Assembly: GCF_056746865.1 (NCBI RefSeq)
Contig: NZ_CM163382.1
Reading direction: 5' to 3' (one strand)
DNA: 64,000 nucleotides
Shown: piece by piece, positions 8,077 to 54,025 of the stretch
Layout: each line of letters opens with the position of its first letter
How positions within the stretch are numbered: the stretch's first letter is position 1
The notes under the pieces: model-generated
Database searches by the model: none
What the model was told of the DNA's origin: nothing
What the model saw: only the letters and a program-made list of their open reading frames with translations
Position numbers and translations under genes: made by a program

Positions 8077-8892
8077 TTATTGGTTAAATGGCGCTTCGTG
8101 TTTAAGCACTTTATCGATCACATCCAGTACGCCTTCACGGTTATTGGAGCCTGCCCGGTATTTTGCCGCTGCGACGACCGCGCTGCCGGCATTTTCCATT
8201 GCAAAACTAAAGCCTGCCTGACGCAGCATCTCAATATCGTTACCGCCATCGCCAAAGACCACCACTTCGCTGTCGTCTATTCCCCATAATTTCTGCAGTT
8301 GGCGAAGGCCATTGGCTTTATGTACGCCGGGGATAATCAGATCGATACTGCCGTTGCCGGTGTGGACCGGCACCATAATATCGCCGATGGCCTCATGTAA
8401 TGCTTTTTGTACTTGTGGAATCAGTTCATCGGAAAGATTCAGACCAAACTTAAAGAAGATATCTTCTAAGTTGTCAAAGTTATCGACGTATTCCAGACGG
8501 TGATAATACATTTCCGCCACCGTTTTCATGGCATCGTCATATTTTTTGAGGGTATAGGCGCTATTTTTTCCGCAGGCAATAATTTCCACTTCCGGGCGCG
8601 TCAGCAAATGTTCCACGACAGTAGCAAACGCATCCTTCGACAGCTCGCCATTAAAAACATCTTTGCCTTCGCTCACTACCCAGCCGCCGTTTTCAGCCAC
8701 AAAGGCTATTTCATTAGCAATTTCCGGAAAGAAAGAGATCAACTGATAATATTGATTCCCGCTGGCGACCACAAAGCGAATGCCTTGTGCTTTCATTTGC
8801 TGATACTGAGCCATAAACCGCTCACGGTTATAGGTTTTTTGATCGCTTAAGAAAGTACCATCCATGTCTACCGCAATTAATTTAATGCTCAT
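8077..8892 (-). CDS. ybjI: HAD-family FMN / sugar phosphatase YbjI (271 aa)
   Basis: ORF translation [15 protein letters not shown] (HAD motif I DxDGT). Confidence 0.85.
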   Translation of the reverse strand: MSIKLIAVDMDGTFLSDQKTYNRERFMAQYQQMKAQGIRFVVASGNQYYQLISFFPEIANEIAFVAENGGWVVSEGKDVFNGELSKDAFATVVEHLLTRPEVEIIACGKNSAYTLKKYDDAMKTVAEMYYHRLEYVDNFDNLEDIFFKFGLNLSDELIPQVQKALHEAIGDIMVPVHTGNGSIDLIIPGVHKANGLRQLQKLWGIDDSEVVVFGDGGNDIEMLRQAGFSFAMENAGSAVVAAAKYRAGSNNREGVLDVIDKVLKHEAPFNQ

Positions 8893-10100
8893 CAACTATT
8901 CTCCATCGCCGTCTGCGTTTTGGTATCGGGTTTGGCGACGGCTTTCGCGACAATAGCCGCGAGAATAACCAGCGCCAGTACAACCAGCATTGCACTACGT
9001 AATCCATAATGTTCGCCGAGATAGCCCAGCAGTGGCGGCCCGACGAGGAAAGCCAGATAACCGGTCGTTGCTACCACACTGACGCGGGTTGGTGCATCGG
9101 GGCCGGTATCGCTGGCGGCAGAAATGGTCAGCGGGAAGCCCAGCGAGGCACCCAGTCCCCAAAGTACAACAGACACCCCAGCGACCCAGGCGCTATCGAC
9201 AAAAATAATCAGCCCAATACCCAACGCTCCCATTAGTGCACTGGCCCGAACCACGGCAACGCGACTGTAACGGTCGATGAACCAACCGCCGGTAAAGCGT
9301 CCAACAGTCATCCCCAGGGTAAAACCGGCATAAATCAGCGAGCCGGAAGTAGGGCTAAAACCGTGACCGTCAACCATTAATAAGGGTAACCAGTCGTTGG
9401 CAGAACCTTCGGCAAAGGCCATCGCCAGCACCACAACACCAATCAGCAGCAACTGGATATCGCGATAAAAAGGTACGCCTTTTTCACCATGCTGGGTGCC
9501 ATCGGCAGCATTTTTGCCCGTACCGTCAGGGATTGCCTGAATGGCGATATAAATAGGCGCGATGCCTACCAGCGCCGCCAATAAAATGTGCACCGTTGCC
9601 GGAACGCCAAAGGCCGTCAGTGCCATCCCGACACCAGCGCCTGCCAGCGTGCCCAGGCTATAAAAACCGTGCATCATCGGCAAAACCGTCTTATTCATTT
9701 CTCGCTCAACGGCAGCACCTTCAACGTTTATCGCCACTTCCGCAGAACCAAAACTTGCCCCAAAGACGCCGAGGCCAACCGCGAAGAGCAGGGGCGATGT
9801 CAGCCAGAGTGCCAGACTTAGTATCATCATCCCGATCAATGCGCAGGACATCGTGACCAGGATGACATTACGCGTCCCAAAGCGTTTCACTAACCACGCC
9901 GAGCAGAGAATACCGCTCATTGAACCGATCGACAGACCAAAGAGGACTCCGCCCATTTCAGCGATCGAAACAGAAAGAATATCGCGGATAGCAGGCGTAC
10001 GGGTTGCCCAGGACGCCATTAACAGGCCCGGCAAAAAGAAGAACATAAACAGCGCCCAGGTTCGGCGTTTCAATGCATTACGTGAAGAATTTACGGTCAT
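8892..10100 (-). CDS. ybjJ: MFS transporter YbjJ (402 aa)
   Basis: ORF translation, multi-TM; position divergent from rcdA. Confidence 0.8.
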
Positions 10101-10183: not shown

Positions 10184-10720
10184 ATGCGTCGCGCTAACGA
10201 TCCGCAACGGCGAGAAAAAATTATCCAGGCCACGCTGGAGGCGGTGAAACTTTACGGAATACATGCTGTTACGCACCGCAAAATTGCTACCCTTGCCGGG
10301 GTACCGTTGGGGTCGATGACCTACTATTTTTCAGGAATTGATGAGTTGTTGCTGGAGGCGTTCAGCAGTTTTACTGAGATCATGTCCCGGCAATATCAGG
10401 CATTTTTTAGCGATGTTAGTGATGCTCAAGGCGCATGCCAGGCTATCACCGATATGATCTACAGCTCACAGGTTGCAACGCCGGATAACATGGAGCTGAT
10501 GTACCAGCTCTACGCGCTGGCTAGCCGAAAACCGCTATTAAAAACGGTAATGCAAAACTGGATGCAGCGCAGTCAGCAAACGCTCGAACAATGGTTTGAA
10601 CCCGGAACCGCCCGCGCGCTTGATGCGTTTATTGAGGGGATGACGCTGCATTTTGTCACCGACCGTAAGCCGCTATCGCGCGAGGAGATTTTGAGGATGG
10701 TTGAGAGGGTTGCAGGGTAG
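10184..10720 (+). CDS. rcdA: TetR-family transcriptional regulator RcdA (178 aa)
   Basis: ORF 10154-10720, start at [21 protein letters not shown]; TetR-type helix-turn-helix. Confidence 0.85.
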
Positions 10721-10739
10721 TAGATAAATTATAGGCAAC

Positions 10740-10818
10740 AAAAAACCCACCAACCTTGAACCGAAATGGCGGGGTTGATGGGCTCCACAAAATGGGGACA
10801 TCAAAGAAAAGCAGTGGC
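10740..10818 (-). ncRNA. rybB: Sigma-E-dependent small RNA RybB
   Basis: Minus-strand sequence GCCACTGCTTTTCTTTGATGTCCCCATTTTGTGGAGCCCATCAACCCCGCCATTTCGGTTCAAGGTTGGTGGGTTTTTT matches RybB as I recall it; terminal hairpin plus U-tract; sits in the rcdA–ybjL intergenic region as in K-12. Confidence 0.85.
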
Positions 10819-10860
10819 ACTAATTAAGACTGATGCCCTGCGGAAAAGTTCTGCGGTTGT
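10819..10860 (-). promoter_or_regulatory. Sigma-E-type promoter of rybB (-35 GAACTT, -10 GTCTTA-like)
   Basis: Minus-strand GAACTT followed about 16 nt later by TCTTA just upstream of the RybB 5' end. Confidence 0.55.
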
Positions 10861-10894
10861 GCAAAAAAATTTCATTTTCAGGGCAACTTCAGTT

Positions 10895-12580
10895 TTATCC
10901 TAATCCTGGCCATACCATGACGATGATTGTCCCTGCCAGCGTCAGCAGGACGTTGGCGATTGCGTAAGTGCCCGCATAGCCCAGCGCCGGGATATTACTG
11001 CGAGCTGTATCACTGATGATCTCCATTGCCGGCGCGCAGGTGCGTGCGCCCATCATTGCGCCGAACAACAGTGCGCGGTTCATTCGCAATACATAAGCAC
11101 CGAACAAGAAGCAGATAACCACTGGCACCAGACTGACAATCAATCCGGCAATCAACATCTGACCGCCAATCGCGCCCAGGCCGTTATTAATACCGCTACC
11201 AGCGCTCAGACCAACGCCTGCCATAAACACCATCAAGCCGAACTCCTTCACCATGCTTAATGCGCCCTGCGGAATGTAACCGAAGGTCGGGTGGTTAGCA
11301 CGCATAAAGCCCAGCATAATTCCGGCGAATAACAACCCGGCAGCGTTTCCCATGCCGAAACTGAATGTGCTGAACTGGAAGGTGATCATCCCGATCATCA
11401 GCCCAATAACAAAGAAGGCGCAGAATGCCAGCAAGTCAGTGACCTGGCTGTGAATCGAGATAAAGCCGATGCGATCGGCGATGGTTTTTACCCGGCGGGC
11501 ATCGCCGCTGACTTGTAAAACGTCACCTTTGTTAAGCACGACGTTGTCATCAATCGGCATCTCAATCTGGCTACGAATGACGCGGTTAAGGAAGCAACCG
11601 TGATCGGTCAACTTCAGTTGTGCCAGGCGTTTGCCAACAGCGTTATGGTTTTTAACGACCACTTCTTCAGTGACGATACGCATGTCGAGAAGGTCACGAT
11701 CGAAAACTTCTTTGCCGTTACGGAAGCTGGGATCGAGTCGGGCGTGGGCGTCGGGGTAGCCTACCAACGCTATTTCATCGCCCATTTGTAGCACGGCATC
11801 ACCGTCTGGATTTGCCAGAATCCCGTTACGCCGAATACGTTCAATGTAGCAGCCGGTTTGTCGATAAATACCCAGTTCACGCAGATTTTTGCCGTCGGTC
11901 CAGGCTACCAGCTCCGGGCCGACGCGGTAGGCGCGGATCACCGGCAAATAAACCTTACGGTTGGCATCTGTGTCCAGGCCACGTTCGCGGGCGATTTGCT
12001 GGGCGCTGGTCTGTAAGTCCTGATGCTGCAATTTCGGCAAGTAACGCGCACCAACAATCAAACTCACCAGACCGATTAAATAGGTTAAGGCATACCCGAG
12101 GCTCAGATTATCCAGTGCCAGTGAGAGCTGCCTGCTTTCCATGCCGGAATGACGCAGTGTATCGCCAGCACCGACCAAAACCGGTGTTGACGTCATAGAG
12201 CCTGCTAACATACCGGCCGTCAGGCCAATATCCCAGCCAAACAGCTTACCTAACCCTAAGGCGATCACCAGCGCACTGCCAACCATCACCAGTGCTAACA
12301 TTAGGTAATTTTTCCCATCGCGAAAAAAAATGGAAAAAAAGTTCGGTCCGGCTTCGACCCCGACGCAGAAAATAAACAGCATAAAGCCAAGATTAAGCGC
12401 GTCGGTGTTAATGCTGAAATGTTGTTGGCCTAATAACAGCGATACGACTAAAACGCCAATGGAATTACCCAGTTGGATCGAACCAAGTCGTAATTTCCCG
12501 AGACATAGCCCAAGCGCGAGGACCACAAATAATAACAGAATGTAATTCCCATTTAACAATTCGGCGACGTTTATATTCAC
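10895..12580 (-). CDS. ybjL: Putative transporter YbjL (AAE family, two TrkA-C domains, 561 aa)
   Basis: ORF translation, length and position. Confidence 0.85.
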
Positions 12581-51718: not shown

Positions 51719-51748
51719 ATGCAGGCATAAAAATTGGGGGAGGTGCCT

Positions 51749-54025
51749 ATGCTCAATCAAGAACTGGAACTCAGTTTAAATATGGCTTTCGCCAGAGCGC
51801 GCGAGCACCGTCATGAGTTTATGACCGTCGAGCACTTGTTACTGGCGCTGCTCAGTAACCCATCTGCCCGGGAGGCGCTGGAAGCGTGTTCTGTGGATTT
51901 GGTTGCGCTCCGTCAGGAACTGGAAGCCTTTATTGAACAAACCACACCCGTTCTGCCTGCCAGTGAAGAGGAGCGCGACACACAGCCGACGCTGAGTTTT
52001 CAGCGTGTACTGCAACGTGCGGTCTTCCATGTCCAGTCCTCCGGTCGCAATGAGGTTACCGGTGCAAACGTTCTGGTCGCTATTTTTAGCGAACAGGAGT
52101 CGCAGGCGGCATATCTGTTGCGTAAACATGAAGTCAGCCGTCTCGATGTGGTGAACTTTATCTCTCATGGCACGCGTAAAGACGAGCCGACACAGTCTTC
52201 TGATCCTGGCAGCCAGCCAAACAGCGAAGAACAAGCTGGTGGGGAGGAACGTATGGAGAATTTCACGACGAACCTGAATCAGCTTGCGCGCGTGGGAGGA
52301 ATCGACCCACTGATTGGTCGTGAGAAGGAGCTGGAGCGTGCTATTCAGGTTCTCTGCCGTCGCCGTAAAAACAACCCGCTGCTGGTGGGGGAATCTGGTG
52401 TCGGTAAAACCGCGATTGCGGAAGGTCTTGCCTGGCGAATTGTTCAGGGCGATGTGCCGGAAGTGATGGCTGACTGTACGATTTACTCTCTCGATATCGG
52501 TTCTCTGTTAGCGGGCACAAAATATCGCGGCGACTTTGAAAAACGTTTTAAAGCGTTGCTCAAGCAGCTGGAGCAGGATACTAACAGCATCCTGTTTATT
52601 GATGAGATCCACACCATTATCGGTGCGGGTGCAGCCTCTGGTGGCCAGGTCGATGCGGCTAACCTGATCAAACCGCTGCTCTCCAGCGGTAAAATTCGCG
52701 TAATTGGTTCGACAACCTATCAGGAGTTCAGCAACATTTTCGAGAAAGACCGTGCTCTGGCGCGTCGCTTCCAGAAAATTGATATTACTGAACCGTCGAT
52801 CGAAGAAACTGTTCAAATCATCAATGGCCTGAAACCGAAGTATGAAGCGCACCACGACGTGCGTTATACCGCAAAAGCGGTGCGTGCAGCGGTAGAGCTG
52901 GCGGTGAAATACATTAACGATCGTCATCTGCCGGATAAAGCCATTGACGTTATCGACGAAGCGGGCGCTCGCGCACGCCTGATGCCGGTAAGCAAACGCA
53001 AGAAAACCGTTAATGTGGCGGATATTGAGTCCGTGGTGGCCCGTATTGCGCGCATTCCAGAGAAGAGTGTTTCGCAGAGTGACCGCGATACCCTGAAAAA
53101 CCTCGGCGATCGCCTGAAAATGCTGGTCTTCGGTCAGGATAAAGCCATTGAGGCGCTGACTGAAGCCATTAAGATGGCGCGTGCAGGTTTAGGTCACGAA
53201 CATAAACCGGTCGGTTCGTTCCTGTTTGCAGGCCCTACCGGGGTCGGGAAAACAGAGGTGACGGTACAGCTTTCGAAAGCTTTGGGCATTGAGCTTCTGC
53301 GCTTTGATATGTCCGAGTATATGGAACGCCATACCGTCAGCCGTCTGATTGGTGCGCCTCCGGGATACGTTGGTTTTGATCAGGGCGGTTTGCTGACTGA
53401 TGCGGTCATCAAGCATCCACATGCGGTGCTGCTGCTGGACGAAATCGAGAAAGCGCACCCGGACGTGTTCAATATTCTGTTGCAGGTGATGGACAACGGT
53501 ACGCTGACCGATAACAACGGACGCAAAGCGGACTTCCGTAACGTGGTATTGGTGATGACCACCAACGCTGGGGTACGAGAAACTGAGCGTAAATCGATTG
53601 GTCTTATCCACCAGGACAACAGTACCGATGCGATGGAAGAGATCAAGAAGATCTTTACGCCGGAGTTTCGTAACCGTCTCGACAACATTATCTGGTTCGA
53701 TCATCTCTCCACCGACGTGATCCATCAGGTAGTGGATAAATTCATCGTCGAGTTGCAGGTTCAGTTGGATCAGAAAGGTGTTTCTCTGGAAGTGAGCCAG
53801 GAAGCGCGTAACTGGCTGGCCGAGAAAGGTTACGACCGGGCAATGGGCGCACGTCCGATGGCGCGTGTCATCCAGGACAACCTGAAAAAACCGCTCGCCA
53901 ACGAACTGTTGTTTGGTTCGCTGGTGGACGGCGGTCAGGTGACGGTTGCGCTGGATAAAGAGAAAAATGAGCTGACTTATGGATTCCAGAGTGCACAAAA
54001 GCACAAGGCGGAAGCAGCGCATTAA
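51749..54025 (+). CDS. clpA: ATP-dependent Clp protease chaperone subunit ClpA (758 aa)
   Basis: ORF 51734-54025 with start at [11 protein letters not shown]; two AAA modules ([16 protein letters not shown]). Confidence 0.9.

Follow-up and report, generated by a model that had tools for sequence, protein, structure and literature searches.

The rybB small RNA gene of an Escherichia coli strain, with a sigma-E-type promoter and an unoccupied P2-family attachment core

The rybB locus and its neighbors

We analyzed a stretch of 64,000 nucleotides of E. coli DNA, here called the window, in which a 174-bp gap separates ybjL from the convergent gene rcdA. The original prediction placed the 79-nt small RNA RybB in this gap, on the minus strand, with a terminator hairpin, a U-tract and a sigma-E-type promoter; it treated RybB as a known envelope-stress sRNA and warned against taking the gap for empty sequence. 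That warning is well founded, as the sampled PGAP records list no feature there. rybB is unannotated by PGAP in all 30 of the E. coli RefSeq records listed and is annotated in the curated MG1655 record. The status of RybB as established knowledge also holds, and the literature covers an identical or near-identical sequence. The features of the locus are collected in Table 1.

Table 1. Features at and around rybB, in window coordinates
Feature	Position	Strand	Basis
rybB, 79-nt RybB sRNA	10740..10818	-	Rfam RF00110 and alignment to K-12 b4417
Sigma-E -35 element AGAACTTTT	10844..10852	-	8/9 against published GGAACTTTT (PMC1804206); identical to K-12
Sigma-E -10 region AGTCTTAA	10824..10831	-	GTCTTA at 10825..10830 against consensus GTCAAA; invariant positions in 116 loci
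A/T tract AATTTTTTT, candidate UP-element	10863..10871 (-53..-45)	-	0.7-1.4 bits, flanks near zero (116 loci)
5' seed/target-recognition domain, nt 1-16 GCCACUGCUUUUCUUU, includes CACUGCUUUU	10803..10818	-	Identical to K-12
Rho-independent terminator hairpin, 12-bp stem (nt 35-46/64-75) and 3-bp inner helix	10744..10784	-	MFE fold, Rfam structure
U-tract, six U; U-rich tail runs on as G-U-U to 10737	10740..10745	-	Sequence read
Unoccupied attachment core (attB) of P2-family prophages	10725..10749	.	Core repeated at both KO11FL prophage junctions
ybjL, aspartate:alanine antiporter family, upstream neighbor	10895..12580	-	NF003440 equivalog, 1178 bits
rcdA (ybjK), TetR-family regulator, convergent downstream neighbor	10184..10720	+	Pfam TetR_N and TetR_C_31
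ybjJ	8892..10100	-	Beyond rcdA

When the whole window was searched with Rfam 15, the sole sRNA match was RybB (RF00110), at 10737..10815 on the minus strand. At 104.1 bits (gathering score 40; E 2.5e-20), the match is full-length and untruncated, covering model positions 1-79 of 79. Relative to the RNA, the Rfam model is shifted by 3 nt, beginning inside the 5' end and ending 3 bases beyond the six-U tract; the gene ends given here were set by the K-12 annotation, with the curated rybB (b4417, NC_000913.3 887979..888057) as the reference. In this alignment, +1 is the G of GCCACUG (GCCACUGC) at 10818 and the 3' end lies at 10740, after the six-U tract. RybB is identical to K-12 b4417 at 78 of 79 positions, and identity is 100% over the 78 nt upstream, which take in the promoter and the whole spacer before ybjL. 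In an alignment of 211 bases, K-12 and the window agree at every position between the end of ybjL and nt 68 of RybB, promoter included. Both comparisons bear out the predicted gene, its strand and its length. The interval originally delimited, 10740-10860, spans the gene and the core promoter and leaves out only the A/T-rich tract.

The gene is nearly universal in this species. A megablast search with the 79-nt gene detected rybB in 5418 of 5426 complete E. coli genomes. The exact allele of the window was present in 738 of 5420 E. coli records, nearly all others being one base different, and many E. coli genomes match the window perfectly over a 301-nt segment around the gene. The same searches returned seven rybB copies on plasmid-typed records, NZ_CP019257.1 (36 kb) among them, and a divergent copy in one genome, NZ_CP024886.1, at 87% identity.

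The flanking genes are those originally named. ybjL was identified by its equivalog match, and rcdA, which encodes a TetR-family protein, is so named in RefSeq matches 100% identical to the window. On one side, 19 nt separate the 3' end of rybB from the rcdA stop codon (TAG, 10718..10720); on the other, 76 nt separate the rybB +1 from the ybjL stop codon (10895..10897). The gene order around rybB is that of K-12. Is this arrangement conserved, as had been claimed? Within E. coli it largely is, given the presence of rybB in 5418 of 5426 genomes, except that a P2-type prophage parts rybB from rcdA in about 22% of genomes. Across genera, only the ybjL half of the claim stands. Among Enterobacteriaceae, Yersinia and Serratia loci with enough flank, nearly all have the end of YbjL 67-115 nt 5' of the rybB +1, whereas the 3' neighbor of rybB varies, leaving the ybjL side alone stable. 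One record titled 'Chryseobacterium sp. 18061' (CACSKA010000002.1) carries a typical enterobacterial ybjL-rybB-rcdA locus, with a YbjL 93% identical to that of the window; this assembly is probably mislabeled or contaminated.

Elsewhere in the window, three type I-F CRISPR repeats (Rfam CRISPR-DR4, GTTCACTGCCGTACAGGCAGCTTAGAAA), the third with one mismatch, lie 60 nt apart at 54238..54385 on the plus strand, between clpA (51734..54025) and tRNA-Ser. No large ORF fit for a cas gene was found between the repeats and either clpA or tRNA-Ser, and the repeats look like an orphan mini-array. The tRNA-Ser(GGA) gene was located by ARAGORN and Rfam at 54845..54932 on the minus strand. It is followed, on the same strand, by ORFs of 72 aa (55186..55404), 234 aa (55689..56393) and 573 aa (56435..58156), an order that presumably corresponds to serW-infA-aat-cydC of K-12.

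Promoter, terminator and seed

Family membership (by sequence and structure), the position and conservation of the promoter motif, terminator covariation, synteny and in-silico seed-target complementarity were computed here. Sigma-E dependence, Hfq dependence and target repression are taken from the literature on an essentially identical sequence.

The published sigma-E motifs are GGAACTTTT at -35 and GTCAAA at -10 (PMC1804206). Upstream of rybB the order is AGAACTTTT, 13 nt, GTCTTA, 6 nt and +1. The GAACTT that the original prediction described as a -35-like element is at 10846..10851, 16 nt upstream of TCTTA. The pattern GAACTT-N16-TCNNA matches once in the 64 kb against 0.30 expected, and at least one match occurred in 26% of shuffles; the pattern count alone is therefore weak, non-significant support for a promoter. 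Because of this, the promoter call rests on its position relative to +1, its identity to K-12 and its conservation across species. A generic promoter scan of 10600..11000 gave no relevant call, only a sigma-70-like site on the plus strand; sigma-E promoters are not modeled in that scan.

Conservation was assessed by searching a collection of species-representative genomes with a 25-mer of RybB (nt 3-27). This search yielded 120 loci, from Escherichia, Salmonella, Klebsiella, Enterobacter, Kluyvera, Serratia, Yersinia, Providencia, Xenorhabdus, Sodalis and other genera. Since neither the promoter nor the terminator was in the search pattern, their conservation is an independent test; the cross-species invariance of nt 3-27 in the seed, which was itself the pattern, is not. 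In 116 distinct loci from other Enterobacterales, the 70 nt 5' of +1 contain two sharply conserved blocks and no others. The -35 block (AGAACTTT) occupies -34..-27 at 1.3-2.0 bits per position. The -10 block, AGTCnnAA, occupies -13..-6, with GTC at -12..-10 and A at -7 invariant, and the T at -1 is also invariant. The promoter boxes reach about 1.9-2.0 bits, while the spacer and the more distal positions are near zero. Upstream of these blocks, the A/T tract is a candidate UP-element. The rybB promoter is among the sigma-E promoters that have been used for UP-element modeling (PMC3326320), and the tract may serve in this way here.

The promoter of rybB has been studied experimentally. rybB transcription is strictly sigma-E dependent, and PrybB-gfp activity is gone in ∆rpoE (PMC1804206). 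The strongest genome-wide SELEX peak of the RpoE holoenzyme in K-12 is at the rybB-ybjL spacer (PMC5493296). Moreover, PrybB is a tight-binding, strongly competing sigma-E core promoter at low RNA polymerase concentration (PMC3326320). The promoter in the window fits the published motifs, is identical to the SELEX-peak sequence of K-12 and has boxes conserved in 116 loci, in agreement with the sigma-E-type promoter first proposed. Its identity to the K-12 promoter and near-identity to that of Salmonella suggest that transcription is sigma-E dependent in this strain as well (PMC1804206, PMC5493296).

RybB is predicted to fold (MFE -24.6 kcal/mol) into a largely single-stranded 5' region, then a stem with an inner helix, then the U-tract, and the terminator hairpin and U-tract are thus as originally described. 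Covariation supports the terminator: among 54 distinct RNA sequences, 96.6% of cells in the Rfam stem and inner helix are paired, and compensatory changes occur in 6 of the 12 terminator-stem pairs, for example CCCAUCAACC/GGUUGAUGGG versus CCCGAUAGUC/GACUAUCGGG and CCCGAGCGUC/GACGCUCGGG. When the 3' partner was moved by 1-3 columns as a control, pairing fell to 15-54%. The hairpin was not flagged by a generic terminator scan of 10600..11000. The loop limit of that scan, 3-8 nt, excludes the 17-nt apical region of RybB, and therefore the scan says nothing about this RNA.

The RNA of the window differs from that of K-12 at a single base, nt 69 (10750), where the 3' arm of the terminator stem has G in place of A. 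The U41-A69 pair of K-12 becomes a U41.G69 wobble, so that the base pair is kept and the stem is slightly weaker. G69 was found in none of the other species sampled, which suggests that this variant arose within E. coli.

The seed is unpaired in the MFE fold save for a weak 4-bp helix. Its sequence matches CRCUGCUUUU, the seed common to sigma-E-dependent sRNAs (PMC6694218). Nucleotides 1-16 of RybB from the window were paired by RNAduplex with target leaders, which were taken from K-12 because none of the targets is in the window. The best duplex with ompC pairs positions -50..-41 from the start codon (-17.4 kcal/mol; 1.0% of shuffled seeds did as well), that with ompW pairs +5..+21 (-15.5 kcal/mol; 2.2%) and that with ompA pairs +20..+33 (-17.5 kcal/mol; 0.6%). 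All three use the extreme 5' end, GCCACUG. There is no evidence of a RybB target within the window: AAAAGCAGTG, allowing at most one mismatch, has 7 matches against 5.35 expected, and one of these is rybB itself.

How does this RNA compare with other small RNAs of the envelope-stress response? RybB of E. coli K-12 (b4417) and of Salmonella is the same gene, with the same locus, promoter, seed, terminator architecture and ybjL/rcdA neighbors; relative to K-12, the window has G rather than A at nt 69 and four more differences just 3' of the RNA, in the phage attachment core. MicA and MicL of enterobacteria share with RybB a sigma-E promoter, Hfq dependence and the repression of abundant envelope proteins (PMC1804206, PMC4102768). 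However, the sequences, loci and targets of MicA (mainly ompA) and of MicL (lpp; transcribed from within cutC) are unrelated to those of RybB, and neither was matched in the window. MicV and VrrA of Vibrio cholerae have the same CRCUGCUUUU seed, and E. coli RybB can substitute for them functionally (PMC6694218), yet these are different genes, with different scaffolds and Rfam families and no homology outside the seed.

An attachment core for P2-family prophages

The last 10 nt of rybB and the 15 nt downstream, which fall within the 19-nt gap before the rcdA stop codon, together make up a phage attachment core. The 301-bp rcdA-rybB-ybjL segment is in one piece in 4226 of 5422 matching E. coli genomes. 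In the other approximately 1196 (~22%), the match breaks at about 10724/5, just past the RybB terminator. E. coli KO11FL, a derivative of strain W, has a P2-family prophage of about 36 kb at this point; ogr and gpD adjoin rybB, the integrase adjoins rcdA, and the core TGGGTTTTTTGTTnnCTnAAATTTA is present at both prophage junctions. Two further split E. coli genomes have ogr/gpD at the same offset, making three genomes inspected. This use of the site extends beyond E. coli, as other genera contribute at least 8 species-level loci in which ogr or gpD homologues adjoin rybB.

The insertion of P2-like prophages at 'rybB ncRNA' was reported for E. coli W, B (where the prophage carries retron Ec86) and Crooks (Archer et al. 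2011, PMC3032704). P2 sites at sRNA 3' ends in these strains include 'rybB ncRNA' and 'cyaR RNA', and the core in the window is the one that flanks the Rybb*W prophage of W/KO11FL. Unlike the occupied sites of those strains, the site in the window is empty and its core is a variant. The att-core pattern derived from the KO11FL junctions has one match in the window against 0.03 expected. No phage genes and no second copy of the core were found at rybB in the window, and rcdA follows after 19 nt. Compared with the KO11FL attL core, the core of the window has 2 differences; over the KO11FL and K-12 versions together the range is 2-5. A search of a phage collection with the rybB 3' region returned five records, apparently prophage-derived entries that include host flank, and no free phage genome with a clean attP.

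Over the 301 nt, the window departs from K-12 at five positions, and all of them, including A>G at nt 69, fall within the 23 nt from 10728 to 10750. Outside the annotated RNA, the approximately 13 nt after the U-tract (10727..10739; consensus GTTGCCTGAAATT) are conserved above background across genera (loci L004-L123), and the downstream genes differ among the loci that share this stretch. The TT at +2/+3 after the U-tract is nearly invariant across genera and continues the U-rich tail; the rest of the conservation may reflect conservation of attB. One way to account for both observations is that P2-family phage traffic has shaped the rybB 3' end, with integration and excision swapping core sequence with the chromosome. 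In repeated rounds of integration and excision, core sequence would pass between the chromosome and a P2-family attP whose end resembles the terminator, and this would explain the clustering of the five differences, G69 among them, as well as the conserved 13 or so nt 3' of the RNA. We offer this as a tentative idea, and judge the odds to be against it.

Alternative readings and the role of the locus

Could the hairpin and U-tract be a mere terminator of ybjL (and perhaps of rcdA), so that 'RybB' is the ybjL 3' UTR and there is no independent sRNA? ybjL lies on the same strand and ends close upstream, a spacing of 67-115 nt is kept in most Enterobacterales loci, and neither scanning nor folding of the stretch from the ybjL stop codon to the rybB promoter (10819..10894) revealed a canonical intrinsic terminator. 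This spacer folds into an imperfect long hairpin (z -2.4), which we did not read as a terminator since it has no U-tract and overlaps the promoter spacer. With no terminator in between, ybjL mRNAs probably end at the RybB hairpin and would carry the RybB sequence in their 3' UTR. However, an end of ybjL would not call for the sharply conserved sigma-E promoter that sits exactly 6 nt before the mapped +1, nor for RpoE binding that in K-12 is strongest here (PMC5493296) or for a PrybB-gfp activity that is lost in ∆rpoE (PMC1804206). Moreover, Xenorhabdus, Providencia and Sodalis keep rybB without an adjacent ybjL. It is therefore very unlikely that the region is a ybjL terminator and nothing else. 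The two roles are compatible, and termination of ybjL adds to the sRNA gene without replacing it.

Two other readings have even less in their favor. ORFs of 43-54 aa in a mechanical ORF list overlap the interval, so that a small protein might be encoded there, either by a 54-aa ORF (10656..10820, minus strand) or by a 45-aa ORF (10766..10903, plus strand). Neither ORF has a Pfam match. The GTG of the 54-aa ORF, at 10820, is 2 nt upstream of the transcription start, and this ORF would have to pass the terminator into the strand antisense to rcdA. Across species the RNA is 76, 77, 78, 79, 80 or 81 nt long, with loop indels that break any frame, and the substitutions compensate one another in the stem and do not follow a third-codon pattern. 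We rejected both ORFs on the basis of the missing Pfam matches, the frame-breaking indels and the start codon 5' of the transcription start, and regard a coding role as negligibly probable. Alternatively, because the rybB 3' end is a prophage attachment core and all five differences from K-12 in the 301 nt are inside it or at its edge (10728..10750), this copy could be a non-functional leftover of decay or rearrangement, for instance an attL/attR junction from a prophage. Yet the gene is full length with promoter and seed intact, its single change keeps a base pair (G.U), rcdA follows directly with no phage DNA and one copy of the core in the window, and the same 301 nt occur at 100% identity in many E. 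coli genomes. A remnant is hardly credible given these observations.

We conclude, with a probability of about 0.97, that positions 10740..10818 on the minus strand are the intact chromosomal rybB gene of an E. coli strain, acting as a sigma-E-driven, omp-repressing Hfq sRNA. The proposed sequence of events follows the published work. Misfolded outer-membrane proteins would lead to the release of sigma-E, and sigma-E RNA polymerase would begin transcription at the G at 10818 by way of the -35 element AGAACTTTT and the -10 element GTCTTA, probably aided by the upstream A/T tract. Transcription would end at the 12-bp hairpin and U-tract to give the 79-nt RNA, which would bind Hfq through its U-rich 3' part. 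The 3' region of RybB is given as part of the Hfq-binding module in work cited in PMC6694218, and RybB speeds the decay of many omp mRNAs (PMC1804206). By analogy, Hfq binding and Hfq-dependent repression are expected in this strain (PMC1804206, PMC6694218). The extreme 5' end of RybB, GCCACUGCUUUU, would pair with many omp mRNAs, including ompC, ompW and ompA, blocking their translation and speeding their decay. Fewer new porins would then enter the stressed envelope, a negative feedback on sigma-E activity.

What does the locus tell us? Published work already covers the gene, how it is regulated, what it targets and its role as an insertion site for P2 phages, and biologically nothing here is new. 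The 174-bp 'intergenic' gap is nonetheless not empty, as it holds one of the strongest sigma-E promoters of the genome and a global regulator of outer-membrane protein synthesis. For the specialist, two points are mildly useful: the minority terminator allele, with its U.G pair at nt 41/69, and the empty, slightly variant phage attachment core. If phage traffic has indeed shaped the rybB 3' end, then some of the allelic variation at the terminator and Hfq-binding end of this core stress sRNA would come from phages.
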